Shown piece after piece: positions 5,378 through 22,844 of a DNA stretch of 64,000 nt. Each line of letters opens with the position of its first letter. Position 1 is the stretch's first letter. The stretch comes from Candidatus Poribacteria bacterium (GTDB lineage: Bacteria > Poribacteria > WGA-4E > PCPOR2b), in NCBI GenBank assembly GCA_965207095.1, contig OZ242270.1, positions 687,378 to 751,377 on the forward strand. Direction: 5' to 3'. The notes beneath the pieces are model-generated. The model saw only the letters and a list, made by a program, of their open reading frames with translations, made no database searches and was not told where the DNA came from. The position numbers were made by a program, and so were the translations under genes.

Positions 5378-6811
5378 CTACGGAAAGATTCCGAGTTGCA
5401 TATAGGATCGGGCGACCTTATCGATTGCGATAACGAATGCCGCCGTTCTCAGGTCCACCGCTGCTCCAAGCCCCTTTGATTCCCTTCTAATTTCATCGTA
5501 TGCGGTCACCATCGTTTCCTCAAGCGCGGCATCCACCAAATCCTCTTCCGTGGCACCATGCGCCAAGCGATTTCGATCAGTTTTTGAAAATTGCTGACCC
5601 GACAGGCTTTCCATCGCCTTCAAAAGATTTCTGTCCCTATTTTCCTCAAAACGTCTTTCCAACTGACCGAACCGCACATGCGAAAGGTTCTTGAGCCACT
5701 CAAAATAGGAGATGGTAACACCGCCCGCGTTCAGATACACGTCTGGAATAACCGCCACCCCTTTTGCCCTAAGAATCTCATCTGCTTCGGGGGTTGTTGG
5801 CCCGTTTGCGGCTTCCGCGACAATCTTGGCTCTGATTTGAGAGGCGTTCTCACGGGTAATCTGATTTTCGAGCGCTGCAGGAATGAGGATGTCACATTCC
5901 TGTTCAAGGATGTCAACCAAGTCTGGGAGATTGGTCGCCCCAGGAAAATCGAGAAGGGAATCTTTTTCGGATCGATGCTGGTAGACCTCCTCAACAGCTA
6001 ACCCTTTCGGATTGTAGATGGCACCGGTCATGTCCGCTAATCCAACAATCACCGCCCCACCTTCTTCCAAAAATTTGGCACTGTGGTACCCAACGTTGCC
6101 AAATCCCTGAATGACAACCGATTTACCCTCCAAGCCCGGCGTCAGCCCGATCGCCTTCATATCCTCCGAGAAACCGCACGCCTCCCGGATGCCGAAGTAC
6201 ACGCCTCTACCTGTGGCCGCTGTCCGCCCATAAATACCACCGAGTTCCAGCGGCTTTCCCGTCACACATGCCCAGCCTTCCAATTTATCTGGCGTAAATG
6301 ATTTATAGGTATCGGCGATCCATGCCATTTCACGCTCCCCGGTACCGTAATCGGGGGCGGGAACATCTATGCCCGGACCGATGAAATTCTTCTGAATCAG
6401 TTCGTACGTATAGCGGCGGGTGATGCGCTCCAATTCCGCGGTGGAGTAGTTCTTGGTATCGATCTGAACGCCCCCTTTCGCCCCACCGAACGGCACATCG
6501 ACGATGGTACATTTGTATGTCATCAGGGCAGCGAGCGCGATCACCTCGTCCTCATTGACCAACGTACTATAACGGATTCCACCTTTTGTCGGCTGTTTGT
6601 GATGACTATGTTCCGCTCGCCACGCGTGGATGACTTCAATCTCTCCATCATCTCTTTTGAGCGGAAATGTCATGTGACAGACGCTGTTGCAGATTTTGAT
6701 CTGCTCAAGTAGACCGGGAGGGTAGTCGGTGAACTGAGCGGCTCTGTCAAAGTTAAGGTTAACCTGTTGAAAAAACGAGCCCTCTGGCGCCATTTCTACT
6801 GTTCTCCTCAC
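5378..6811 (-). CDS. Glu/Leu/Phe/Val dehydrogenase family (glutamate dehydrogenase)
   Basis: PFGGAKGG catalytic-lysine motif, GFGNVG NAD(P)-binding motif, KGGIRY region. Confidence 0.85.
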
Positions 6812-8311: not shown

Positions 8312-8560
8312 TTAGGCATCAGCAGCTTGGTCCACAGTAGACATTGGATGGACTTTCATTGGTTCATAGTAGAGTAGCATGATCTGATCAGGACGCAAAC
8401 CTACTGACTCATAAGTGCGTCCGTCACGGTCACTGAATTCTACTTCAAAGGCTTTACCGTCTGCAAGAATTTCAACCACTGTACCGACTTGCCCACGTCT
8501 GAGATTATATTCAGGCAAATCGCCTATAAGGGCAACCCCATCGAATAGTTTGATATCCAT
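8312..8560 (-). CDS. DUF4926 domain protein
   Basis: Pattern FDGVALIGDLPEYNLRRGQVGTVVEILADGKAFEVEF is characteristic of DUF4926. Confidence 0.55.
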   Translation of the reverse strand: MDIKLFDGVALIGDLPEYNLRRGQVGTVVEILADGKAFEVEFSDRDGRTYESVGLRPDQIMLLYYEPMKVHPMSTVDQAADA

Positions 8561-8580
8561 GCTCTCTCACCTCCAGCATC

Positions 8581-8955
8581 CTACAATGGGTAACAAGATG
8601 TTAATCTTGGTGTATCTGAATCGTGTTCAATGATCCAAGCACTCCGAATCATCGCCTGTTTGCTGCGCCAAACAAGCATAAAGTCAACGACGTAGCGTTG
8701 ACCATAGGCATCACGTCGTCCCGGTTGTCCGTCGTGTGTCTTAATCGCTTCCAACAAAACGCTGCGCAATTCTTCTGCATCATCAGCGGTCATGCTAAGT
8801 GCAGCTATAAATAAGCGTGCTTTATGCTTTCCATGCTCATGCGTCGAATTCAGGCAGTAATCACGCAACTTGCGAATATCCACAACAGCATCTTCAGCGT
8901 TTGGTACTTTCATCACTGCTCCGAATTTCGGCATGCGGAAATACAGCAGCGACAT
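8581..8955 (-). CDS. DUF6883 domain protein (true start probably the internal Met at 8913)
   Basis: MKVPNAEDAVVDIRKLRDYCLNSTHEHGKHKARLF matches the DUF6883 N-terminal signature. DUF6883 and DUF4926 genes are commonly adjacent. Confidence 0.5.
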   Translation of the reverse strand: MSLLYFRMPKFGAVMKVPNAEDAVVDIRKLRDYCLNSTHEHGKHKARLFIAALSMTADDAEELRSVLLEAIKTHDGQPGRRDAYGQRYVVDFMLVWRSKQAMIRSAWIIEHDSDTPRLTSCYPL

Positions 8956-9062
8956 CCGGTTCTAACTGGATAACTTGTCCCCTGAAACTCTTCCGCTTAG
9001 GACCAACTTTTCTCACCCGTAAACTCTTCAAATCGCACTCTGGACGAAGTTCATCGTCCATC
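8894..9062 (-). CDS. Possible short BrnA/DUF4415-like antitoxin remnant (56 aa, not in ORF track)
   Basis: Own translation of the minus strand gives MDDELRPECDLKSLRVRKVGPKRKSFRGQVIQLEPDVAAVFPHAEIRSSDESTKR. The ..QLEPDVAAVFP.. segment resembles the RLDDDVAKIFP segment of the gene at 9318-9524. Confidence 0.25.
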
Positions 9063-9107
9063 TTGGTCTCAGTTTTCTGTATAATCTTCTCTTTTCCTTG
9101 CCTCTAA

Positions 9108-9311
9108 CTACACCCATAATTCTTGCGTATCAAAGCGAAGTGCTGCTTGAATCCCCTCTTTAGTTAAACGCGGATGTGCTTCAAGGAGTTGCTCAACAGT
9201 TTCACCCGCAGCGAGTTTTTCCAGAATCAATTCTACCGTGATACGCGTACCCGCAACGACGGGCTTCCCCATCATGATTGATGGATCGGATTGTATAAGT
9301 TTTGTGTCCAT
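9108..9311 (-). CDS. DUF433 domain protein (antitoxin-like)
   Basis: MMGKPVVAGTRITVELILEKLAAGETVEQLLEAHPRLTKEGIQAAL matches the DUF433 consensus (GKPvi.GTRi.ve.il..l..G.s.eeil..yP.lt.e.i.aal). Confidence 0.7.
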   Translation of the reverse strand: MDTKLIQSDPSIMMGKPVVAGTRITVELILEKLAAGETVEQLLEAHPRLTKEGIQAALRFDTQELWV

Positions 9312-9317
9312 AACGTG

Positions 9318-9524
9318 CTATGCCTTTTGTTGATGCTGGTCAATAATTTTTCCCAACGCTCTCAAAGCAGAGTTCACTGATTTAGCATCAGGAAATATTT
9401 TGGCAACATCATCGTCAAGCCTAACAATATTTGTGCCTTCCCGATATCTCTGGGCATATTTGCCCCGAACGCCTTTACTGAAATCGTATTCATCAAGTAA
9501 ATCCGGATCTTGTTGATTGAGCAT
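9318..9524 (-). CDS. BrnA/DUF4415-family antitoxin-like protein
   Basis: DEYDFSKGVRGKYA motif followed by IVRLDDDVAKIF and ALRAL, as in BrnA-type antitoxins. No BrnT (DUF497) gene is adjacent. Confidence 0.55.
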   Translation of the reverse strand: MLNQQDPDLLDEYDFSKGVRGKYAQRYREGTNIVRLDDDVAKIFPDAKSVNSALRALGKIIDQHQQKA

Positions 9525-13941: not shown

Positions 13942-13998
13942 GGTTGGTATCCGATAGATAACTACTGATATAATAGAGGGGTGCTCATAATTATTGTA

Positions 13999-14157
13999 GG
14001 AGTTAAGCACTTCAGTAAGGAATAATGATCGTTGTTCCCTACGGACTCCTTATGGAGCCTCTACTGTAGTTGCCCGATTTATCGGGCGTTGGGAACGGTG
14101 CCCAGCGGCGATAAATCGCTGAACTACATGGATTTGAGCGTTCAGCTGCGTAAGTCC
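13999..14157. repeat. ~160-nt multi-hairpin structured element family B, copy 1
   Basis: Perfect or near-perfect nested palindromes (GGAATAATGATCGTTGTTCC; CCCGATTTATCGGG; GGCGATAAATCGC; CTGTAGTT..AACTACA). Second copy at 14326-14484. Confidence 0.55.
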
Positions 14158-14325
14158 TACATTCTCTGAATCAGGATTTACAGGATTTAAGGGTTAACAG
14201 GATAATATATCTCCAATCCCCCTATAAAGACATACAGATGTTCGGGGTCAGGGAGGTGAAAACAGGAAGCTTTTAGCCCCAGCGGGGCGACAGGTGTAAC
14301 TTGAGCTAAATCTTTCTTAAGGATA

Positions 14326-14484
14326 GGAGTTACGCACTTCAGTAGGGAACGCAGATCTGCGTTCCCTACGGACTCCTTGTGGAGCCTATGCTGTAGTTGC
14401 CTGATTCATCAGGCGTCGGAGATTGTGTCCTACGGCGATAAATCGCCGAACTACAGGGCTCGGGGCATCCAACTGCGTAACTCC
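14326..14484. repeat. ~160-nt multi-hairpin structured element family B, copy 2
   Basis: Closed by a 10-bp stem GGAGTTACGC...GCGTAACTCC. Internal hairpins GGGAACGCAGATCTGCGTTCCC, CCTGATTCATCAGG, GGCGATAAATCGCC. Outer stem CTGTAGTT/AACTACAG. Confidence 0.55.
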
Positions 14485-14518
14485 TAAAGGAACTAAAAAG
14501 AACAGTTGAGGTGATAAT

Positions 14519-16087
14519 TTGAGTACAATCCAAAGCGGTATTGAAAATCGCCTGTGGACGATAGCAGATGAGTTGAGAGCAAACTCACGGCTCCGGGCGT
14601 CTGAGTATTCAACGCCCGTGCTAGGGTTGATATTTTTACGGTATGCAGACCACAAATTCACGCAGGCGGAAGGGGAAATCCGCGAAACCGCATCCACCGG
14701 TAGCAGGCGCACGAGAATCTCAGATCAGAGCGCAGCATATCATGCCCGCGGTGCCTTCTACCTCCCAGAAAACGCGCGTTTCCAGTACCTGTTGAACCTA
14801 CCGGAGAGCGAGGATATTGCACGGGCTATCAACGACGCGATGCGGGCGATTGAGGAAGCAAACAACAGTCTTGATGGTGTTCTACCCAGGACCTACAACC
14901 GCCTTGAACGGAGTGTCCTCTTTGAACTGCTCCGCACCATGGCAGAAATTCCGATGGACATTGAGGGCGATGCGTTTGGTAAGATCTACGAGTATTTCCT
15001 TGGCAACTTTGCCATGGCGGAAGGGCAACGGGGCGGCGAGTTCTTCACTCCCACCTCTCTGGTGAAACTAATTGTTGAGATTATCCAGCCCTTTCAAGGA
15101 CGAATTCTGGACCCAGCGTGCGGTTCTGGCGGTATGTTCGTCCAGAGCGCCGAGTTTATCCATAACCACCAACAGAATGGGAACAATCGGATCAGCATTT
15201 ACGGAACGGAACGGGTTGCAGAAACAATTCGGCTCTGCAAAATGAACCTCGCCGTGCATGGACTGGAAGGCGACATCCGGCAAGCGAACAGCTACTACGA
15301 GGACCCGCATCGATGTGTGGATAGATTCGACTTCGTGATGGCAAATCCGCCGTTCAACGTGGATAGGGTGGACAGGGAACGGCTTAGGGATGACCCACGA
15401 TTTCCGTTCGGGATGCCCCGCGTGGATAACGCCAACTATCTCTGGATTCAGTTGTTTTACAGCGCCCTCAACGCCTCTGGTCGGGCAGGGTTTGTGATGG
15501 CAAACTCCGCCGCCGATGCCCGTGCCTCTGAATTGGAGATCCGCAGGCAGATTATCGAATCCCGTGCCGTTGATGTGATGGTGAGTATCTCCTCCAATTT
15601 CTTCTATACCGTCACGCTGCCCTGTACCCTCTGGTTCTTCGACAAGTCTAAAGGGGAGAGCGATCGAGCGGATAAGGTACTTTTCATTGATGCCCGCCAT
15701 ATCTACCAACAGGTAGATCGAGCACACCGAGAGTTCACACCCCAGCAGATTGAATTCCTGTCCAACATTGCGAGGCTGTATCGGGGCGAACTCCCTGAAA
15801 ACCAGCACGACAGCGCGGATATGATGGCAGCGAAATTCCCCGATGGCGTGTACCTTGATGTGCCCGGTCTTTGTAAGGTGGCAACAGTTGAGCAAATAGA
15901 AGCGCAGGGGTGGAGCCTCAATCCGGGACGGTATGTCGGGGTTGCAGAACGGGAAGAAGATGCGTTTGACTTCGCGGAACGGTTGGGAGAACTCAACGAG
16001 GAGTTAGAAGTCCTGAACGTTGAGGCACGTCAGTTGGAGGAACGGATTGGAGAGAATGTGGCGATGATTTTGGAAAACAGAGTATAA
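14519..16087 (+). CDS. hsdM: Type I restriction-modification system DNA methyltransferase subunit (N6-adenine)
   Basis: N-terminal HsdM_N-like region LWTIADELR...[13 protein letters not shown]. Catalytic NPPFN motif (ANPPFNV). AdoMet motif [10 protein letters not shown]. Confidence 0.9.
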
Positions 16088-16409
16088 TAACCAATGGTAC
16101 TAGCTTGCAGCTGTTGATAAGCTGAAACGTGAAAATCATTGGTTCATTTAGCCCCAGCGGGGCGGCATGTTTATAGCAGGGGCGATCCCCCAAATCCCCA
16201 AGCCCCAGCGGGGCGATATGTGTATAGTATAAGGTGTCCGCAGATAAAATCGTCAAGTAGAATACAGAGAGCATTGTTTCTGCCATTAGGGAGGTTGCAT
16301 GAACATGGACGAAAAATAAGAGTTAATAGAAATCTACAAACTTCACGCAGAACTTGCTGACAGCGTCAGCAGACAACGAGGCACAACAAACCGTTTTTAT
16401 ATTTTACTC

Positions 16410-16757
16410 ATGTCAGGATTATCTGTGCTCTTCTGGGCACTATTACAACTCCGAAATGGAGTGCCGCTTGGCGACCTGATGATAGGTTTCGGGCTATTGG
16501 GCACATCACTCGCAGTCGCTTGGTACATCCACATCCGTTCCTACCGCCAGCTAAATTCGGGTAAATTTAAACCCCTACATGAGTTAGAGGAGAAGCTCGC
16601 TTACCCTTTTTTCAAGCGGGAATGGGAACTACTCGAAGAAGGAGAGAACCCGAACAAATATTGGAAGTTGACTGTTGTTGAAACCTTTGTTCCTATCATC
16701 TTTTTCCTTCTCTTTGCGGTGGTGTTGTTTATCGGGATTTACCTATTGCTGCGCTGA
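16410..16757 (+). CDS. Small membrane protein (3 predicted TM helices), unknown function; reading frame is open a further 90 nt upstream to an in-frame TAA at 16317
   Basis: Hydrophobic segments MSGLSVLFWALLQL, LMIGFGLLGTSLAVAWYIHI and FVPIIFFLLFAVVLFIGIYLLL. The upstream in-frame peptide ELIEIYKLHAELADSVSRQRGTTNRFYILL reads as a genuine amphipathic helix, preceded by ATG..TAA (MNMDEK*). Confidence 0.45.
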   Translation: MSGLSVLFWALLQLRNGVPLGDLMIGFGLLGTSLAVAWYIHIRSYRQLNSGKFKPLHELEEKLAYPFFKREWELLEEGENPNKYWKLTVVETFVPIIFFLLFAVVLFIGIYLLLR

Positions 16758-16760
16758 AAT

Positions 16761-16772
16761 TCCATTGTCTGA
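16761..16772. promoter_or_regulatory. Palindromic operator-like site GAATCAGGATTC (5-2-5 inverted repeat)
   Basis: Identical 12-mer at 17177-17188. Related GAATCAGGATTT at 14168, and an inverted variant at ~17266. All lie in intergenic spacers of the R-M locus. Confidence 0.25.
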
Positions 16773-16868
16773 ATCAGGATTCTCCCCGATAGATCCCCGA
16801 TATATCGGGACAGGCGGGACAGGCAGGATGGAAGGATTCTCAGGATAGCACATGAGAGCGGAGAGATT

Positions 16869-17150
16869 ATGCAAGAAAAAGATAGAAAACGAGATCCGAT
16901 GCCCCCTCCCGATGCAACCCCAGAGGAGATTGGCGAATTTTGGGATACCCACAGCCTATCCGATTATTGGGACGAAACCCACGAGGTGGATTTTCAGATC
17001 AATCTCAAACTGAAACACAATCTGGTCCCGGTGGAACGTGAGATTGCCGAGCAAATTAACGCACACGCAACAAAACAGGGCGTATCGGCTGAAAAATTGG
17101 TAAACCTCTGGCTTCGAGACAAATTAAAAGGGATTACCACAAGGCAATAA
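16869..17150 (+). CDS. CopG-family antitoxin-like protein (PF12441/BrnA-type partner of BrnT), orphan
   Basis: PEEIGEFWDTHSLSDYWDETHEVDFQI is the hallmark N-terminal motif of this antitoxin family. No DUF497/BrnT gene is nearby. Confidence 0.6.
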   Translation: MQEKDRKRDPMPPPDATPEEIGEFWDTHSLSDYWDETHEVDFQINLKLKHNLVPVEREIAEQINAHATKQGVSAEKLVNLWLRDKLKGITTRQ

Positions 17151-17176
17151 GCAAGGGAAGATGGTGCAAATTGTCA

Positions 17177-17188
17177 GAATCAGGATTC
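17177..17188. promoter_or_regulatory. Palindromic operator-like site GAATCAGGATTC, second copy, ~120 nt upstream of hsdS
   Basis: Exact repeat of the 16761 site within the 20-bp direct repeat TTGTC(T/A)GAATCAGGATTCTCC. Confidence 0.25.
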
Positions 17189-17307
17189 TCCAGATTGAAG
17201 AAGTTTCACGATAGTGGATGGCAGTGGATAGCATCAATCCTGTAAATCCTAAAATCCAGTAAATCCAGATTCAGACAGAGTGCAATGATGATTTTGGAGA
17301 AGACAGC

Positions 17308-18589
17308 ATGGTGCAACGTGAAGATTGGAAACCTTTTCGTTTGGATCAATTGGGCTTTGTTGGACGCGGGAGGTCCCGAAGCCGACCAAGAAATGATCCT
17401 GCTCTCTACGGGGGACCTTATCCGCTATTTGAAACAGGGGATATTAAATCCACCGATCTTTACCTGTCAAAGTCAAAGAAAACTTACAATGAAAAGGGAC
17501 TAGCTCAAAGCAAACTGTGGAATCCTGGTACACTTTGCATCACGATTGCTGCTAATATCGCGGAAACTGCGATTCTGAAAATCAAGGCATGTTTTCCAGA
17601 TAGCGTCGTTGGTTTCGTTGCGGATCCTGAGACGACTGATGTAAGATATGTTAAATACTACATTGATTTCATCAAACTACAAATGCAAAACATATCGCGG
17701 GGAACAACACAAGATAACCTGAGTGTAGAGAAGTTGTTATCCTTTGAGTTTTTCGCGCCGCCGTTGAATACTCAACGCAAAATCGCCGCAGTCCTCAGCG
17801 CCTACGACGACCTGATCGAGAACAACACCCGCCGCATCGAAATCCTTGAGGAGATGGCGGGGGCAATCTACCGAGAATGGTTTGTCGAATTCCGCTTTCC
17901 GGGGCATGAGGGGGTGAAGATGGTGGAGTCGGAGTTGGGCTTGATACCGCAGGGGTGGGAGGTAAACAACTTCGGTGAGGTTTCGCAATTACATAGAGGA
18001 AAATCGTACAGAAGTCAGGAATTTAGTCGAAGATGCAAGAGGGAATTGCCATTCCTTAACCTGAAAAACATTGATCGGGAAGGCGGATATAGAATTGATG
18101 GTCTGAAATGGTATGATGGAAGAAACGCAGATTGATCTCAAAGACATTGTTATGGCACTGTGATTGACACAAGATGGGAGAATTGTTGCCCGTTCCACTC
18201 GTAATTCCCAATATAGGGCGCGAAATAATAATGTTTTCTATGGATCTTATTAAAATCAAACCGGAAGAATCATTTCAAACAGACTTTCCTTTTATGCCTT
18301 GTTCAGATACTCAAGCCTTACCTGATAGTACTCAAAGAGTATGCTAATGGCGCGAGTCCAAACATCTAAGCCCCAGTCATGTTCAATCATCTGAATTAGT
18401 TTGCCTCCCAGTGAATTAAGACAAAGATATGCTGAGATTGCAGAGTCCAGTTGGACCAACAAAGTGATTTGCTACTTAGAAAGAAAAACACCAACCTCCG
18501 CCAAACCCGCGATCTCCTACTCCCCAAACTGATCTCCGGCGAGATTGACGTATCCGAACTTGATATCGACACCGACTGATACTATTCCC
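17308..18589 (+). pseudogene. hsdS: Type I R-M specificity subunit HsdS, disrupted: TRD1 + central conserved region + first ~65 aa of TRD2 (17308-18135), then ~300 nt without coding capacity, then a conserved C-terminal 51-aa remnant (18436-18589) in the same frame
   Basis: Central conserved region LSVEKLLSFEFFAPPLNTQRKIAAVLSAYDDLIENNTRRIEILEEMAGAIYREWFVEF. C-terminal remnant [31 protein letters not shown] is the typical HsdS distal conserved region. The 18136-18435 segment has stops in all forward frames and is AT-rich. Confidence 0.7.
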
Positions 18590-18630
18590 AAAAAGGAACA
18601 TAAGCGTATGCGACCCGAACCCCTGAAAGA

Positions 18631-18853
18631 ATGAACAGACCGAATTGTTATTGACGAAGCAGTTCTGACCGGAAAGCCTGTTATCAAGGGCACCCGTTTA
18701 GCTGTCGAGTTCATTATTGATCTACTGGCACACGGCTGGAGTGAAGCAGAGATTCTTGAAAATTACCCCGGTATTGTGGTTGAGGACATTCGAGCGTGTC
18801 TCGCTTACGCCAGTGCGACGTTACATGCCGAAGAAAATTATAATGGGTCTTAG
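18631..18853 (+). pseudogene. DUF433 domain protein; start apparently separated from the body by a +1 frameshift (MNRPN | RIVIDEAVLTGKPVIKGTRL...)
   Basis: RIVIDEAVLTGKPVIKGTRLAVEFIIDLLAHGWSEAEILENYPGIVVEDIRACLAYA matches DUF433. Its frame has no ATG after the preceding stop. An ATG at 18631 is in the +1 frame and reads MNRPNCY*. The TAG stop codon is formed by the first 3 nt of MITE copy 3. Confidence 0.5.
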
Positions 18854-18942
18854 AATTGATGAGACACACCAAACCGGTGCGGTTAGGAAACCGCACCTAC
18901 CGGGCGGGCGAAAGTGTCTATCTGTTTTTAGAATTCACCATA
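18849..18942. mobile_element. MITE-like repeat family A, copy 3 (short form, single palindromic module)
   Basis: TAGAATTGATGAGACACACCAAACCGGTGCGGTTAGGAAACCGCACCTACC..GAAAGTGTCTATCTGTTTTTAGAATTCACCATA. Confidence 0.6.
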
Positions 18943-18957
18943 AAGGAGGAAATTGAG

Positions 18958-19215
18958 ATGAATTTAACCGTTGAACTAACAACCGATCAGGTCGTCGGTT
19001 TTGTCCAACAGATGCCAGCCGAAGAAAGACGGTCACTACTACTCGCGATTGCAGAGCAGGCAGCAGCCAATCGGGAAACACGTATAGACCGTGCTGAAAC
19101 ACAGTTGCGGCAGTTGTGTAAAGATCGGGGGTTGGATTGGGATGCCATGACCGAGGCAGAGCGCGAAAATTTTATTGATGATCTGATCCACGAGGACCGC
19201 GAATGCAACCAATAG
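18958..19215 (+). CDS. Putative antitoxin / addiction-module component, cognate to the downstream PIN gene
   Basis: 85-aa acidic helical protein with an AAGGAGG RBS. Overlaps the PIN gene by 13 nt, as in translationally coupled TA pairs. Family not recognised. Confidence 0.45.
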   Translation: MNLTVELTTDQVVGFVQQMPAEERRSLLLAIAEQAAANRETRIDRAETQLRQLCKDRGLDWDAMTEAERENFIDDLIHEDRECNQ

Positions 19216-19610
19216 CCGTTTACGATACAAACATTTTGTTGTCAGGTATCGGCTGGCGAGGTAGTCCGTATCGTTGTCTTGAATTGGCACGGCAGGGCAG
19301 CGTTGAAGGGTTGACCTGCTCCGAAATACTGGATGAATTGGCGGAGAAATTAACGACTAAACTCAACTTTCCGGTGTCCGAAACTACTGATGTAATCGCG
19401 GATCTCCTTGGTTTCTTGCGGGTGGTCAAGATTACCAACACGCTCAAAGCCATCTCTGCCGATTCGGACGACGACAAAGTCATTGAATGTGCCGTTGTGG
19501 GGGAGGCAACCCATATTGTAACCGGCGATCGCCGTCATCTGTTGCCACTTGGCAGCCATCAAGGTGTCCTTATTGTCACAGCAGCGGACTTTCTTGGACA
19601 GTTTTCATGA
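19203..19610 (+). CDS. PIN-domain protein (putative type II toxin, TIGR00305-like)
   Basis: VYDTNILLSG N-terminal acidic motif. Later conserved D residues (..VTGDRRHLLPL..) are typical of small PIN toxins. Confidence 0.6.
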   Translation: MQPIAVYDTNILLSGIGWRGSPYRCLELARQGSVEGLTCSEILDELAEKLTTKLNFPVSETTDVIADLLGFLRVVKITNTLKAISADSDDDKVIECAVVGEATHIVTGDRRHLLPLGSHQGVLIVTAADFLGQFS

Positions 19611-19655
19611 ACTGGAAAAAATTGACCAAAGATAAAAGTTGCGAACCAGTAAATC

Positions 19656-22600
19656 ATGCAGAATAATCCGTACAGCGAAGACCAACTGGTTGAACAAACC
19701 GCCATCGCCCTACTCGCAGGAATGAGGTGGGAGACCTTGGACTGTTACAACGAATTCGATCACGGTAGCAGTCCGCTCGGTAGGGAGAATAGGGGCGAAG
19801 TGGTTCTGATAAGGCGGTTACGCGCTGCCTTGAAGAGGCTCAACCCCGATGCGTCCAGTGAGGCAATCGGTGCAGCGATTGAGGAGTTGACCCGCTCCCG
19901 TGCGACAATGAGCCGCGAAGAAGCCAACTATGAGATATACAGGCTACTCAAGGATGGTGTGAAAGTTACAATCACGGACCCGGACGGCGAAGGTGAAACC
20001 GATGAAATACTAAAGGTAATTGATTGGGAGAATCCAGAGAATAACGATTACTTTCTGGCATCACAGTTATGGATCGCCGGTGAGATGTACACTCGCAGGC
20101 CTGATGCAATCGGCTTTATCAACGGCTTACCCTTAGTGCTGATGGAGTTCAAACGGATTGACGAAAACCTTCACAGCGCATATCAGGACAATCTCAGGGA
20201 CTACAAAGACACAATCCCCCACCTATTCTGGTACAACGCCGTGATTATCCTCTCCAACGGCTCAGAGAGCAGATTCGGTAGCTTGACCGCGAGTTGGGAA
20301 CATTTCACCGAATGGAAACGGGTTGAGCGCGAAGATGAACAGGGAGCGGTTTCGCTGGAAACAATCCTAAAGGGGATATGTGAACACCGCCGGCTGTTAG
20401 ACATTATCGAGAACTTCACACTGTTTATGGAAGTCCAAGGCGGGTTGATTAAGCTAATCGGCAAGAACCATCAATACCTCGGCGTGAACAACGCGATCGA
20501 TGCCCTGCGTGGGATAGAGTCGAATCAGGGAAAACTCGGTGTCTTCTGGCATACGCAAGGCTCAGGAAAGAGCATCTCGATGATTTTCTTCGCGCAGAAG
20601 GTGCTGAGAAAGATACCGGGCGGTTGGCGGTTCGTTATCGTGACTGATCGCAGAGAGTTGGACGACCAGATCTATAAAAACTTCGCAGATTCTAGGGGCG
20701 TGGTCACGCAGGGGGAGGTCCATGCGGAGGATATCCAGGGTCTCCGGCAGCTGTTGAGCGAGGATCACCGCTATATCTTCACGCTTATCCAGAAGTTCCA
20801 AACAAAGGACGATGCACCGCATCCCGTCCTCTCCGATAACGCAAACGTCATTGTCATTACCGATGAATCACACCGCAGCCAATACGATACATTGGCGTTA
20901 AACATGCGGACGGCGCTTCCCAACGCGGCATTCATCGCCTTCACCGGGACACCGTTAATCGACGGAGAGGAACGGACGAAGGAGGTGTTCGGGGAGTATG
21001 TCTCGATTTACGACTTCAAGCAGTCGGTTGCGGACGGTGCGACCGTGCCGCTCTATTACGAAAATCGGGTGCCTAGAATGCAGTTGATCACCGAACACCT
21101 AACCGAGGATATAGAACAAATCCTTGAATCAGCCGAACTGGACGAAACACAGGAAAACAGGCTTGAACAGGAGTTTGCGATACAGTACCAGGTCATCACG
21201 CGGGAGGAACGGTTAGAAGCGATTGCGGCAGATATTGTCTCCCACTTTATGGGACGAGGATACCGTGGCAAGGCGATGGTCGTCTCAATCGACAAAGCCA
21301 CCGCCGTCAAGATGTATGATAAGGTGGGGGAATATTGGAGAAACTACTGTGAGGAGTTGAAGGAGCAGTTAAGCGATACCACCGAGGCCGCGGAACGGGG
21401 TACTCTGGAAGAAAAGATTCAGTACATGGAGGAGACCCGTATGCGGGTGGTGGTTTCCCAGTCGCAGAACGAGATTGGTGATCTGAGAGCGAAGGGTGTG
21501 GACATCACTCCACATCGGCAACGGATGAACACCCAGGATTTGGATGCCAAATTCAAAGACCCAGAGGACCCGTTCCGTATCGTTTTCGTCTGCGCGATGT
21601 GGATGACCGGTTTCGATGTACCAGCTTGCTCAACAATCTATTTGGATAAACCCCAACGTAACCATACCCTGATGCAGACTATCGCTAGAGCCAATCGCGT
21701 CTTCAAGGATAAAGTCAACGGCTTAATCGTCGATTACATCGGCATCTTCCGAAACCTTGAGCGAGCGTTGGCGATTTATGCAGATGGCACTGATCCAGAT
21801 GGCACCGATCCGGACGGCAAGAATCCTATCCGGGATAAATCGGAACTTGTCGAGGAGCTCAGAGGAGAGACCACGGAGATTAAGGCGTTCTGCACGGACC
21901 TCAATGTGAACCTCGTCCAGATTGACGCAGCGGAGACAGAGCCCCTTGAACGTATCAGACAAATCAATGACGCCGTAGACCGGATATTGATCAATGACGA
22001 GATTAAAGGGGATTATCTACAACGTGCACGCCAAATCTCTCGACTATACAAGGCAATCCTCCCCGATCCCGCGGCGAGCGATTTCAACGGGATCTGCACC
22101 CTCATTAACATCATCGCGAAGAAGATCAAGAACCTGACACCAGCACCGATCGACACTACGGATGTGATGGAGCAGATCGAGGATCTACTAGATCAATCAA
22201 TCGTGCCAACGGGTTACATCATAGAGGTAGCTGGAGATTACGAAACGGATTCGATTGTCGATCTGAGTCGGATTGACTTCGACGAACTCCGGGAAAGGTT
22301 TAGGACGCAACACAAACATATTGAGGCGGAAAAACTGAGGGGATCAATCCGGCGGAAGCTATCCGAGATAATACCGCTTAATGGGACCCGAATGGATTAT
22401 CAGGAACGGTTCGAGCGGATTATCGCGGAGTATAATGAAGCTGCGATAGATGTTGATACGTGGTTTGAACAACTGATCGAATTGGCGGGAGAACTCACGG
22501 AGGAGGAGCAGCGTACCATTGCTGAGCAACTCACCGAGGAACAGTTAGCGGTGTTTGACCTGCTAACTCGACCTGAGATTGAGTTAGATGAAACAGAGAG

Positions 22601-22844
22601 AGACAAAGTGAAAGCTATATCCAAAGATTTACTCACGAAGCTGAAACAGGAGAAGTTGGTTTTGGATTGGCGTCAACGCCAACAATCCCGCGCGGCGGTC
22701 AAAGTCACTGTCGCAGAGATCCTCGACGAACTGCCGGAACGTTACACGCAGGAGATATATGATCGGAAGTGCGAGGTCGTGTATCAACACATTTACGATT
22801 GTTACTACGGCGCCGACAACAGTATTTATGGAAGCGCGGCATAA
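19656..22844 (+). CDS. hsdR: Type I restriction enzyme R subunit (endonuclease/helicase)
   Basis: HsdR N-terminal domain. SF2 helicase motifs HTQGSGKS (Walker A), VITDESHRSQ (DExH), FTGTP, VDYIGI. Length 1062 aa. Confidence 0.9.
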   Translation: MQNNPYSEDQLVEQTAIALLAGMRWETLDCYNEFDHGSSPLGRENRGEVVLIRRLRAALKRLNPDASSEAIGAAIEELTRSRATMSREEANYEIYRLLKDGVKVTITDPDGEGETDEILKVIDWENPENNDYFLASQLWIAGEMYTRRPDAIGFINGLPLVLMEFKRIDENLHSAYQDNLRDYKDTIPHLFWYNAVIILSNGSESRFGSLTASWEHFTEWKRVEREDEQGAVSLETILKGICEHRRLLDIIENFTLFMEVQGGLIKLIGKNHQYLGVNNAIDALRGIESNQGKLGVFWHTQGSGKSISMIFFAQKVLRKIPGGWRFVIVTDRRELDDQIYKNFADSRGVVTQGEVHAEDIQGLRQLLSEDHRYIFTLIQKFQTKDDAPHPVLSDNANVIVITDESHRSQYDTLALNMRTALPNAAFIAFTGTPLIDGEERTKEVFGEYVSIYDFKQSVADGATVPLYYENRVPRMQLITEHLTEDIEQILESAELDETQENRLEQEFAIQYQVITREERLEAIAADIVSHFMGRGYRGKAMVVSIDKATAVKMYDKVGEYWRNYCEELKEQLSDTTEAAERGTLEEKIQYMEETRMRVVVSQSQNEIGDLRAKGVDITPHRQRMNTQDLDAKFKDPEDPFRIVFVCAMWMTGFDVPACSTIYLDKPQRNHTLMQTIARANRVFKDKVNGLIVDYIGIFRNLERALAIYADGTDPDGTDPDGKNPIRDKSELVEELRGETTEIKAFCTDLNVNLVQIDAAETEPLERIRQINDAVDRILINDEIKGDYLQRARQISRLYKAILPDPAASDFNGICTLINIIAKKIKNLTPAPIDTTDVMEQIEDLLDQSIVPTGYIIEVAGDYETDSIVDLSRIDFDELRERFRTQHKHIEAEKLRGSIRRKLSEIIPLNGTRMDYQERFERIIAEYNEAAIDVDTWFEQLIELAGELTEEEQRTIAEQLTEEQLAVFDLLTRPEIELDETERDKVKAISKDLLTKLKQEKLVLDWRQRQQSRAAVKVTVAEILDELPERYTQEIYDRKCEVVYQHIYDCYYGADNSIYGSAA

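Follow-up and report, generated by a model that had tools for sequence, protein, structure and literature searches.

[quoted passage not shown] It is a Type I R-M operon in which the gaps are filled by small defence and toxin-antitoxin modules, mostly broken here; because hsdS and most of the embedded modules are broken in the window copy, it is a largely ordinary decaying operon and not a new toxin-antitoxin system. The reading as a whole, a mosaic, partly decayed chromosomal Type I R-M operon of a Poribacteria sponge symbiont with a dead TIR-8xMP pair, appears to us quite probable. The order given in the preliminary description (hsdM, 3-TM gene, CopG-like gene, hsdS, DUF433, repeat, p85 with PIN_3, hsdR) was borne out by Pfam, PADLOC and NCBIfam profile searches, as was the occurrence of accessory conflict genes between the hsd genes. 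The features are as follows.

13997-14159 and 14324-14486: two MITE-like copies of ~163 nt upstream of hsdM, 80% identical, with terminal inverted repeats
14161-14204: repeat-C copy 1, between the two ~163-nt copies, with GAATCAGGATT at 14168
14519-16087, +: hsdM, intact, 522 aa, TTG start behind GAGGTGA
16147-16224: short repeat (core AGCCCCAGCGGGGCG) in two copies, where the body of the TIR gene has been deleted
16231-16323, +: TIR stump, dead: ~30 codons left of the 3′ end of a ThsB-like TIR gene, interrupted by two in-frame stops
16299-16757, +: 8xMP 3-TM gene, pseudogene
16764-16785 and 17170-17191: 22-nt direct repeats, both with GAATCAGGATT, bracketing the CopG-like cassette
16869-17150, +: CopG/RHH-type gene, intact, 93 aa, without a toxin partner
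17170-17277: ~108-nt MITE with inverted ends TGTCWGAATCWGGATT
17308-18579, +: hsdS, broken
18608-18853, +: DUF433 gene, pseudogene, ATG at 18608, TGA (18632-18634) at codon 9
18836-18943: dispersed MITE-like repeat between DUF433 and p85, one copy in the window
18958-19215, +: p85, putative antitoxin gene, intact, 85 aa, 13-nt overlap with PIN_3
19203-19610, +: PIN_3 (VapC-like) toxin gene, intact, 135 aa
19656-22844, +: hsdR, intact, 1062 aa

The R-M genes and the broken hsdS

HsdM matched N6_Mtase (E = 2.6e-84) and HsdM_N (E = 8e-23) in Pfam and MTase_I in PADLOC (E = 1.5e-227), carries the NPPF and DPACGSGG motifs, and is 88-89% identical in amino acids to its counterparts in the related loci L001 and L015 (dN/dS 0.07-0.10). 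Its start, formerly placed at 14163, is the TTG at 14519, and repeat elements occupy 13997-14518. HsdR has the Pfam domains HSDR_N, SWI2_SNF2, T1R_D3-like and T1RH-like_C, with E = 1.7e-151 for TIGR00348, E = 6.2e-189 for PADLOC REase_I and a dN/dS of 0.12-0.14.

The ORF at 17308-18135 (275 aa; Methylase_S, E = 2.5e-19) is a truncation of hsdS; it preserves TRD1 and the central conserved region undamaged, and PADLOC Specificity_I covers profile positions 5-226 of 417 only. Nine frame changes and one TGA, all between 18019 and 18455, disrupt TRD2; none of the indels lies in a homopolymer run. The remainder of the gene is present up to 18579, with a readable conserved C-terminal region (18456-18576), and frameshift-aware alignment with P0392 gave 165 identities in 220 positions after frame correction. 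Through the compensated frameshift pair 18019/18044, the truncated product ends with about 60 residues of scrambled TRD2.

With HsdM and HsdR intact and HsdS reduced to TRD1 and the central conserved region, the enzyme would be inactive, a half-size S dimer being less likely. Truncated HsdS subunits of the type IC enzymes EcoDXXI and EcoR124I act as dimers with palindromic specificity. That the 275-aa HsdS likewise dimerises and guides the enzyme to methylate and cut a symmetric site is possible, if rather unlikely: TRD1 and the central conserved region are retained in an ORF with a dN/dS of 0.12 against L016, next to intact hsdM and hsdR, but the kinship of this HsdS to type IC enzymes is an assumption and the scrambled residues burden the product.

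Remnants and an intact pair in the two gaps

Broken modules lie on either side of hsdS. The 3-TM protein belongs to 8xMP (PF24838; E = 1.2e-23 on the ORF 16410-16757). The start at 16410 assigned to it earlier proved wrong, this ORF being what is left downstream of an in-frame TAA (16317-16319) at codon 7, a Gln in homologues; the true start is the ATG at 16299 behind GGGAGG. An ORF beginning at Met38 would lose the conserved N-terminal helix, the invariants of which include Y11, H14, R25, T27, R30 and Y32 (P0003 numbering; window = +2).

Directly upstream of the 3-TM gene lies the TIR stump, absent from the preliminary description. A tblastn search with the TIR protein of L016 recovered it (79% identity over residues 117-144, E = 1.1e-7); its translation is KVSADKIVK*NTESIVSAIREVA*TWTKNKS, and a similar stump occurs in L001/L012, L002 and L013.

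An undamaged arrangement, hsdM-TIR-8xMP-hsdS-hsdR, is found in L016 (Poribacteria). Among 80 species-level genomes, the upstream partner of 8xMP is an intact TIR gene in 41 and a partial one in 11, with none in 28, and gene calls in L004-L011 place the two genes in a 4-nt overlap. A short ThsB-like TIR (PF08937) directly upstream of, and overlapping, a small 3-TM protein resembles Thoeris, and the 8xMP-linked TIRs are 62-65% identical to an E. coli type IV Thoeris TIR. Identity is 54-66% to the TIRs of '3TM' effectors in Table S1 of bioRxiv 10.64898/2025.12.03.692087, where 'TIR + 3TM' is a putative class. Because 8xMP adjoins a TIR gene, whole or partial, in these genomes and in L016, the 3-TM protein is predicted to be an orphaned effector of such a 'TIR + 3TM' Thoeris-like pair, a label drawn from the TIR partnership and from the category in the preprint table, the '3TM' effectors of which may differ from PF24838. 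The membrane effectors of Thoeris comprise Macro-TM in type II, ThsF/DUF2270 (3 TM, ring-forming) in type V and SLATT in type VII; 8xMP gave no match to DUF2270, SLATT or Macro, is not in PADLOC, and has no solved structural relative.

Which genes are present, how they are damaged, how often they have a given partner and which modules related loci carry or lack were all observed directly; the biochemical roles at the locus we infer. The gap between hsdM and hsdS probably once held a two-gene Thoeris-like pair, in which a ThsB-type TIR sensor and signal synthase was coupled translationally to 8xMP. By analogy with characterised Thoeris, 8xMP would form a ring in the membrane and act as an effector that opens on an NAD-derived signal made by the TIR and thereby aborts infection. 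Unlike working Thoeris loci, the window has no more than the stump of the TIR gene and an effector with a stop, so that its pair would be dead, the TIR deleted to 30 codons and 8xMP stopped at codon 7. At the same time, 8xMP may work without an adjacent TIR, because TIR-less copies are intact in many Poribacteria under strong purifying selection (dN/dS 0.01-0.13), and 'orphaned remnant' may understate the protein in relatives.

In the gap between hsdS and hsdR, the DUF433 start had been set at ATG 18631, which is out of frame with the real gene; its TGA stands where the L001 homologue (PF04255, E = 1.4e-22) has Trp9, and tblastn with that homologue recovered residues 1-67 at 78% identity with one stop. 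In L014 and L100 this slot is occupied by a complete pair, DUF433 followed by DUF5615. The window gene, likewise placed after hsdS, is best read from its sequence as the remains of a DUF433-DUF5615 pair (COG2442-COG4634; VapB45-type antitoxin with Mut7-C/PIN-like toxin); unlike the complete pair, it would represent the antitoxin half, with the toxin gene lost and a stop of its own, in a slot now partly filled by a MITE-like repeat and another toxin-antitoxin pair.

That other pair is p85 with PIN_3 (PF13470, E = 6.9e-18; 45.5 bits against a TIGR00305 cut-off of 29.15). The acidic residues of PIN_3 are present in YDTN, LDEL, DDDK and TGDR, and p85 stands directly 5′ of PIN_3 in every one of L001, L096, L098 and L099; dN/dS is 0.05-0.10 for p85 and 0.10-0.17 for PIN_3. 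As in VapBC PIN_3 pairs, a small upstream gene overlaps the toxin gene, but p85 lacks a recognised DNA-binding family. Judged by sequence, the two constitute a complete pair, and an autonomous one because it also occurs outside R-M loci; it would be a type II system of antitoxin and PIN_3 RNase, which probably stabilises the locus or serves abortive infection.

Among the five small products of the preliminary description, 16410 was assigned to PF24838, 16869 to PF12441 and 19203 to PF13470, whereas 18958 (p85) reached the cut-off of no Pfam family. The earlier statement that every antitoxin-like gene is without its canonical toxin is right as to BrnT/DUF497 and DUF5615, neither of which was found by a Pfam profile search of the locus ORFs, but it overlooked p85 and PIN_3. 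Of the two explanations then offered, decayed modules agree with a DUF433 gene without DUF5615 and a 3-TM gene without TIR, both with a stop; a new toxin partner does not.

Four parts are thus wrecked (3-TM gene, hsdS, DUF433 and the 30-codon TIR stump), while all intact genes are under purifying selection (dN/dS 0.05-0.17). Note that stops and indels were read from one metagenome-assembled contig. We consider it improbable that errors of assembly or consensus in a long-read metagenome bin produced them and that the operon, with hsdS, 8xMP and DUF433, is in fact intact and functional. The metagenomic contig (958,534 nt) has related low-coverage contigs (2x) with plainly fragmented genes, TRDs are strain-variable so that a consensus built from several strains could be locally scrambled in TRD2, and all nine indels fall within ~440 nt, with none in hsdM or hsdR. 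However, two lesions are stop-creating substitutions in otherwise conserved genes, substitutions not being the typical long-read error; homopolymers are not the site of the TRD2 indels; other assemblies have similar nonsense lesions, for instance in the CopG-like gene of L013; and the TIR deletion is real because at least four other genomes share it.

The 3-TM protein and the CopG-like gene

With the lesions taken as real, other roles for 8xMP were weighed against that of an orphaned Thoeris-like effector. The effectors of type II/III Metis are 3-TM octameric proteins that sense methylated nucleotides from degraded host DNA; the effector MisC is a 3-TM, predicted octamer, and Metis variants that go with dedicated methyltransferases are predicted (bioRxiv 10.1101/2025.11.05.686725). 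A TIR-less 8xMP working as such a stand-alone sensor-effector tied to HsdM is very unlikely in our estimation. Like type II MisC, which senses m6dAMP, 8xMP is a small 3-TM protein named 'octameric membrane protein' in Pfam and encoded beside an N6-adenine methyltransferase gene; the operon in L002 is reduced to hsdM-8xMP, and TIR-less 8xMP genes are under the strong selection noted above. But 8xMP has no detectable kinship to putative MisC (the gene downstream of the MisB homologue in L092; hhalign probability 0.4%), which itself matches no Pfam family, and no MisB-like HAD phosphatase gene lies near any 8xMP locus. TIR-less 8xMP also neighbours a P-type ATPase where no methyltransferase is encoded, hsdM adjoins 8xMP because the TIR gene between them was deleted, leaving a visible stump, and the window 8xMP is itself stopped.

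The 93-aa CopG-like protein scores 38 bits against PF12441 (E = 2.9e-9), above the gathering score of 28 as in BrnT/BrnA systems, but unlike those it reaches only 20.7 bits with the NCBIfam BrnA model (cut-off 60), and no BrnT/DUF497 gene occurs in the window or in any of five related contexts examined. It has 249 homologues and a dN/dS of 0.11-0.17. The gene follows hsdM directly, without 8xMP, in L094-L096, and elsewhere precedes SLFN_AlbA_2 or an N6_N4_Mtase gene; its neighbours in related contexts are DNA methyltransferase, SLFN_AlbA_2 or DUF2806 genes. The role of this stand-alone protein on a repeat-bracketed cassette is guesswork from genomic context: most likely a DNA-binding regulator that goes with R-M or methyltransferase genes, the alternative being an orphan antitoxin.

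Small membrane proteins are often toxins, the two genes adjoin in the window and in L013, and PF12441 is an antitoxin family; nevertheless, the proposal of a novel pair inside the R-M operon, with the 3-TM protein a new membrane toxin neutralised by the CopG-like antitoxin, is largely refuted by the presence/absence pattern and retains hardly any credibility, because each gene occurs intact without the other: 8xMP without the CopG-like gene in L002, L012, L014, L015 and L016, or beside a stop-bearing copy in L013, which is incompatible with an essential antidote, and the CopG-like gene without 8xMP in L094-L097 and L101. Moreover, the TIR gene is the statistically conserved, translationally coupled partner of 8xMP, the window genes lie 111 nt apart with a repeat end inside that spacer, and the CopG-like cassette between direct repeats is missing in L002.

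Module turnover and repeats

R-M operons with embedded genes include the prr locus with PrrC and the Campylobacter hsd loci with rlo genes. PIN-type toxin-antitoxin genes coupled to hsdM, hsdS and hsdR vary between close relatives (Matelska et al. 2017, PMC5499597). As in those operons, the window has co-oriented accessory genes between hsd genes, with PIN and DUF433 modules, some of them partnerless, in an arrangement that differs between close relatives; unlike them, its lineage also had a TIR and 3-TM pair in one gap, and most inserts and hsdS are inactivated in this copy. A presence/absence matrix of 10 related loci traced the operon lineage through at least six module states, and at the same chromosomal site L015 has different content (hsdM-8xMP-hsdS-p85-hsdR). 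Both internal gaps would repeatedly acquire and shed small accessory modules.

Repeat family C had been described as occupying every spacer; GAATCAGGATT is in three of eight, and is absent from the hsdM-8xMP, hsdS-DUF433, DUF433-p85 and PIN_3-hsdR spacers. Its enrichment in the locus is real, with exactly three copies in the window (14168, 16771 and 17177), all in the locus, against 0.09 expected by chance. L002 lacks 16786-17169, so that the first 22-nt repeat runs straight into the 17170-17299 sequence. The ~163-nt element also occurs in L002 and L013.

The 'MITE' reported after DUF433 is present, with the correction that it is a dispersed repeat that recurs, at 85-91% identity, in unrelated places of the related genomes L001 (363-431, 4853-4778) and L002; in L001, DUF433 and p85 abut with no repeat between them. 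A third copy of the AGCCCCAGCGGGGCG repeat lies at 14272, and similar segments turn up between genes in several places in L015, L014 and L013.

Decay of the hsd operon

This Type I R-M operon, a mosaic that is partly dead, has defence and toxin-antitoxin modules embedded in it. The gene order given in the preliminary description was checked by Pfam, PADLOC and NCBIfam scans and held throughout, with every gene between 14519 and 22844 on the + strand. The gene hsdM does not begin at 14163, the position from which that description began the locus; this position falls in a repeat-rich leader (13997-14518).

Genes of the locus
14519-16087, + strand: hsdM, N6_Mtase, E 2.6e-84
16410-16757, + strand: three-transmembrane (3-TM) ORF, PF24838 "8xMP", E 1.2e-23
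16869-17150, + strand: CopG_antitoxin (CopG-like gene), PF12441, E 2.9e-9
17308-18135, + strand: hsdS, Methylase_S, single domain
about 18641-18853, + strand: DUF433, broken (see below)
18958-19215, + strand: 85-aa ORF (p85), no family
19203-19610, + strand: PIN_3, E 6.9e-18
19656-22844, + strand: hsdR, TIGR00348, E 1.7e-151

No PADLOC model matched the small proteins of the locus. HsdM carries HsdM_N and N6_Mtase domains, with the NPPF motif read as MANPPFN, and HsdR carries HSDR_N, SWI2_SNF2, T1R_D3-like and T1RH-like_C, which together give a nuclease at the N-terminus, an SF2 helicase and a domain at the C-terminus (506 bits against TIGR00348, cut-off 284). Together with the CopG-like, p85 and PIN_3 genes, hsdM and hsdR are intact, with dN/dS values against relatives of 0.05-0.17.

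The hsdS gene is broken. Its 275-aa ORF covers just positions 5-226 of the 417-position specificity-subunit profile (PADLOC), and in place of a single frame with two target-recognition domains (TRDs) and two conserved regions, the reading frame takes in just TRD1 and the central region. Since comparison at the DNA level gave no fetched locus with the same TRD2 as the window, such a relative was sought by protein search with a stitched TRD2. Frameshift-aware alignment of the intact homologue P0392 to 17900-18600 recovered the remainder of the gene at 165/220 identities, with a TGA at 18161 and nine frame changes in TRD2 (18019, 18044, 18121, 18203, 18288, 18323, 18355, 18399 and 18455), none of them in a homopolymer run; the conserved region at the C-terminus (18456-18576) can still be read. 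Half-size HsdS subunits that form dimers have a precedent in type IC enzymes, and the truncated product could possibly act in this way. It is also possible that an assembly error lies behind the TRD2 indel cluster, the source being a single metagenomic contig of 958,534 nt, but the two substitution stops of the locus and a TIR deletion common to at least four genomes argue for real decay. The R-M system of the window is probably crippled.

The 8xMP gene and its TIR partner

The Pfam match of the 3-TM ORF spanned profile positions 35-133 only, and therefore the upstream frame was read. It opens at ATG 16299, preceded by GGGAGG, and translates as MNMDEK*ELIEIYKLH…, where its nearest homologues (150-152 aa, 94-97% identity) have MNMDEKQELIEIYKLH…; a CAA→TAA change at 16317 therefore ends the gene at codon 7. 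The assignment to PF24838 is clear (E 1.2e-23 for the window ORF and 1e-30 for a full-length homologue), and no intact full-length 8xMP gene (about 150 aa, N-terminal helix plus three TM segments) was found in the window. Restart at Met38 (16410), which no Shine-Dalgarno sequence precedes, would cost the conserved N-terminal helix. Immediately upstream, tblastn with the TIR of a related locus detected the last 28 TIR codons at 16240-16323 (79% identity, E 1.1e-7). Two in-frame stops interrupt this stump (16231-16323, about 30 codons), which runs over the start of 8xMP and is all that the window retains of a ThsB-type TIR gene upstream of 8xMP.

Note that the two codon-resolved nonsense lesions of the window, at 16317 and 18632, are CAA→TAA and TGG→TGA, that is, C→T or G→A transitions. 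A Gln codon of the CopG-like gene of locus L013 (about 6740) is replaced by TAG, the original CAG being inferred, and the stops of the TIR stump stand for Trp and Arg, which would be compatible with the same bias. This is probably an ordinary mutational bias.

The 8xMP family comprises 2355 representatives at 50% identity (E ≤ 1e-3), and close relatives occur in metagenome-assembled genomes (MAGs) of sponge symbionts across many phyla. In public gene calls for several genomes of Poribacteria, a 136-aa ThsB_TIR gene extends into the start of 8xMP with a 4-nt overlap. With an HMM built from these proteins, the position directly upstream of 8xMP was surveyed in 80 species-level genome loci: a full-length TIR was found in 41 of the 80, a partial one in 11 and none in 28. 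Locus L016 (Poribacteria, OY282444.1) has the order hsdM-TIR-8xMP-hsdS-hsdR with an intact TIR, so that the TIR-8xMP pair lies here in the very gap that holds 8xMP in the window. The 8xMP-linked TIRs share 54-66% identity with TIR domains paired with a putative "3TM" effector, a class that a Sorek-lab preprint lists in its Table S1 and leaves out of its experiments (10.64898/2025.12.03.692087). By analogy with characterised Thoeris systems, we infer that 8xMP may serve as membrane effector in a pair that signals through TIR; its clear TIR partner, conserved across sponge-symbiont genomes of many phyla, makes it a good candidate effector of a predicted Thoeris type. The intact TIR-8xMP pairs of L016 (5588-6453) and L004 (7594-8459) are ready test cases.

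No similarity was found between 8xMP and DUF2270, SLATT or Macro effectors, and its placement as a relative of SLATT, DUF2270 or a PADLOC family was rejected, with no matches even at E ≤ 10 or E ≤ 1. Searches of the literature for "8xMP" and "octameric membrane protein" gave nothing relevant and no published function for the Pfam family, and no solved sequence relative was found in the PDB. A shallow alignment gave a poor first AlphaFold2 model (pLDDT 59); the model from a 101-sequence alignment is confident (pLDDT 95.4) and consists of a long N-terminal helix running into TM1, a TM2 prolonged by a cytosolic helix, then a short helix and TM3. Foldseek of this model against the PDB returned nothing below E 0.7.

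Several observations on the wider family are added here. Relatives with 38-63% identity (L044-L091) occur in Latescibacterota, Acidobacteriota, Gemmatimonadota, Rhodothermales, Paracoccaceae, Arenicellales and other MAGs, many of which share sequencing projects with sponge symbionts, and this suggests horizontal spread of 8xMP inside the sponge-symbiont community. The 859-aa protein P0129 joins an 8xMP domain at its N-terminus to an AAA_21/SMC_N ATPase, the 2428-aa protein P0202 contains 15 partial 8xMP matches, and in a Bacteroidota MAG a gene for a caspase-like peptidase lies directly upstream of 8xMP (L088, 4955-5902).

Purifying selection on 8xMP persists in many Poribacteria after loss of the neighbouring TIR. 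Intact TIR-less copies under strong constraint occur in at least 15 Poribacteria species, several of these copies directly behind hsdM, with dN/dS of 0.04-0.13 for R-M-linked copies and 0.01-0.13 for copies behind a P-type ATPase. The latter arrangement, an intact 8xMP without TIR directly behind a P-type heavy-metal ATPase gene, occurs in more than 10 Poribacteria species (L019, L022-L026, L030, L034-L036 and L041; 8xMP at about 6001-6447). At the same ATPase site, L007 carries the ATPase, an SNF2/NOV_C helicase, TIR and 8xMP, so that elsewhere the helicase and TIR genes seem to have been deleted and 8xMP retained. TIR-less 8xMP could be driven in trans by a TIR from another site in the genome, or could sense another danger signal, possibly one linked to DNA methylation by analogy with Metis. 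A direct Metis-like link between hsdM and 8xMP would draw on the Metis effector MisC, a 3-TM protein predicted to form an octamer and sensing m6dAMP (10.1101/2025.11.05.686725); however, 8xMP has no profile similarity (hhalign probability 0.4%) to a putative MisC, which was recognised by its position beside a MisB homologue (on a plasmid of Pseudomonas syringae) and matches no Pfam family, and identity of 8xMP with MisC (type II Metis) was rejected at the sequence level. Neither the window nor any of the 8xMP loci gave a match to the MisB HAD phosphatase, and deletion of the intervening TIR explains why hsdM adjoins 8xMP.

CopG-like, DUF433 and PIN genes

The preliminary description offered two explanations for the antitoxin-like genes, decayed modules or new toxin partners, with the 3-TM protein as a candidate toxin neutralised by the CopG-like protein. 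The observation behind it was largely right and the first explanation is upheld; four components of the locus, the 8xMP, hsdS and DUF433 genes and the TIR remnant, are broken. The second finds no support: in the module matrix of the comparison loci the two genes are independent, and each occurs intact without the other. Intact 8xMP without a CopG-like gene occurs in L002, L012, L014, L015 and L016, and in L013 it is intact beside a CopG-like gene broken by a TAG at a Gln codon; the CopG-like gene stands straight after hsdM in L094-L096, where 8xMP is absent, and precedes SLFN_AlbA_2 in L097 and, in L101, a gene for an N6_N4 DNA methyltransferase. What looked like orphan antitoxins with a membrane protein is debris of known module kinds and does not make up a new toxin-antitoxin system; the result for the window is chiefly corrective.

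In BrnTA systems an adjacent BrnT (DUF497) toxin is expected, whereas this locus is without one: no BrnT ORF was found in the 111-nt and 157-nt flanks of the CopG-like gene, and no BrnT/DUF497 in any of its contexts examined (the window, L094-L097 and L101). The protein scores 38 bits against PF12441 (cut-off 28) and 20.7 bits against the NCBIfam BrnA model (cut-off 60). Judging from genomic context, our best guess is a regulator tied to R-M or methyltransferase genes. The hsdM-hsdS gap of related operons also holds SLFN_AlbA_2 (about 395 aa) and/or DUF2806 (about 350-375 aa) genes (L001, 10545-13083; L094-L096, 5643-6692; L097, 5421-6623), which are further accessory modules of this operon lineage.

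In the hsdS-hsdR gap, the DUF433 homologue of L001 aligns from ATG 18608, and the TGA at 18632-18634 replaces codon 9, which is Trp9 in L001. The absence of the canonical DUF5615 partner from the window, as previously described, was confirmed: tblastn found no DUF5615 in the window and found it in L014 and L100, where the pair is complete, with DUF433 followed by DUF5615 between hsdS and hsdR, and the window contains neither an intact DUF433-DUF5615 pair nor remnants of DUF5615 or BrnT (tblastn, ORF list). The same gap holds DUF433 by itself in L094 and L095, DUF433 with p85-PIN_3 in L001 and L096, and p85 alone in L015, which occupies the same chromosomal site as the window (flanks 88% identical); in L016 it is empty. 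Altogether, p85-PIN_3 recurs as a conserved unit in L001, L096, L098 and L099, and at the last two, which are without any hsd gene, the 13-nt overlap is the same as in the window. Given this presence outside hsd loci, p85-PIN_3 is a predicted autonomous type II toxin-antitoxin pair. PIN-type toxin-antitoxin genes with missing partners, poorly conserved among close relatives, have been described in Type I R-M operons (Matelska et al. 2017, PMC5499597).

Predicted in-frame HsdS::DUF433 fusions were observed (P0394, P0396, P0511 and L100 7001-8485). Genuine fusions would be a functional tie between DUF433 and HsdS. One or more of them, however, come from a contig of 2x coverage whose neighbouring genes are fragmented; the fusions may be artefacts and were set aside as Rosetta-stone evidence. 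The recurrent DUF433 after hsdS and the recurrent CopG-like gene beside methyltransferase genes might be R-M accessory parts and not toxin-antitoxin debris. The joint reading, in which 8xMP of Poribacteria is independent of an adjacent TIR and both these genes are true accessory or regulatory components of R-M, is quite unlikely to hold as a whole; if it did, TIR-less 8xMP would represent a new mode for the effector family.

A second group of small conflict-type genes lies elsewhere in the window (8312-9524, - strand).

Genes of the second cluster
8312-8560, - strand: DUF4926
8581-8955, - strand: DUF6883
9108-9311, - strand: intact solo DUF433, no DUF5615
9318-9524, - strand: 68-aa ORF, no family match

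Module turnover and repeats

A single hsd operon lineage is traceable here through at least six accessory-module states, and provides a compact natural example of defence modules gained, orphaned and eroded within an R-M scaffold; the locus is chiefly valuable as a pointer to this turnover and to the candidate TIR-8xMP pair. Between the window and L001/L012, dS is 0.11 for 8xMP, 0.65 for hsdM and 1.34 for hsdR, and the 8xMP segment (16157-16785) is 93% identical at the DNA level to L001 9853-10481. This divergence, far below that of the flanking genes, suggests recent recombinational exchange of the 8xMP cassette between operons.

The repeat family said to occupy every intergenic spacer of the locus is truly enriched, and four internal spacers are without it: the 64 kb window has three copies of GAATCAGGATT (14168, 16771 and 17177), all inside the locus, against 0.09 expected by chance. 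Copies 2 and 3 form 22-nt direct repeats flanking the CopG-like cassette, and in L002 the first repeat passes directly into the sequence after the second, with 16786-17169 missing. The third copy opens a MITE of about 108 nt with inverted ends (17170-17277). The leader (13997-14518) contains two copies of a 163-nt MITE-like element (13997-14159 and 14324-14486), and the element in the DUF433-p85 spacer (18836-18943) belongs to a dispersed repeat whose copies in L001 and L002 lie at unrelated sites; the DUF433 and p85 genes abut in L001. Short repeats at 14272, 16147 and 16198 also fill spacers. In all, at least four short-repeat or MITE-like families are found in the spacers of the locus, each with copies at unrelated intergenic sites in related Poribacteria (L001, L002 and L013-L015).
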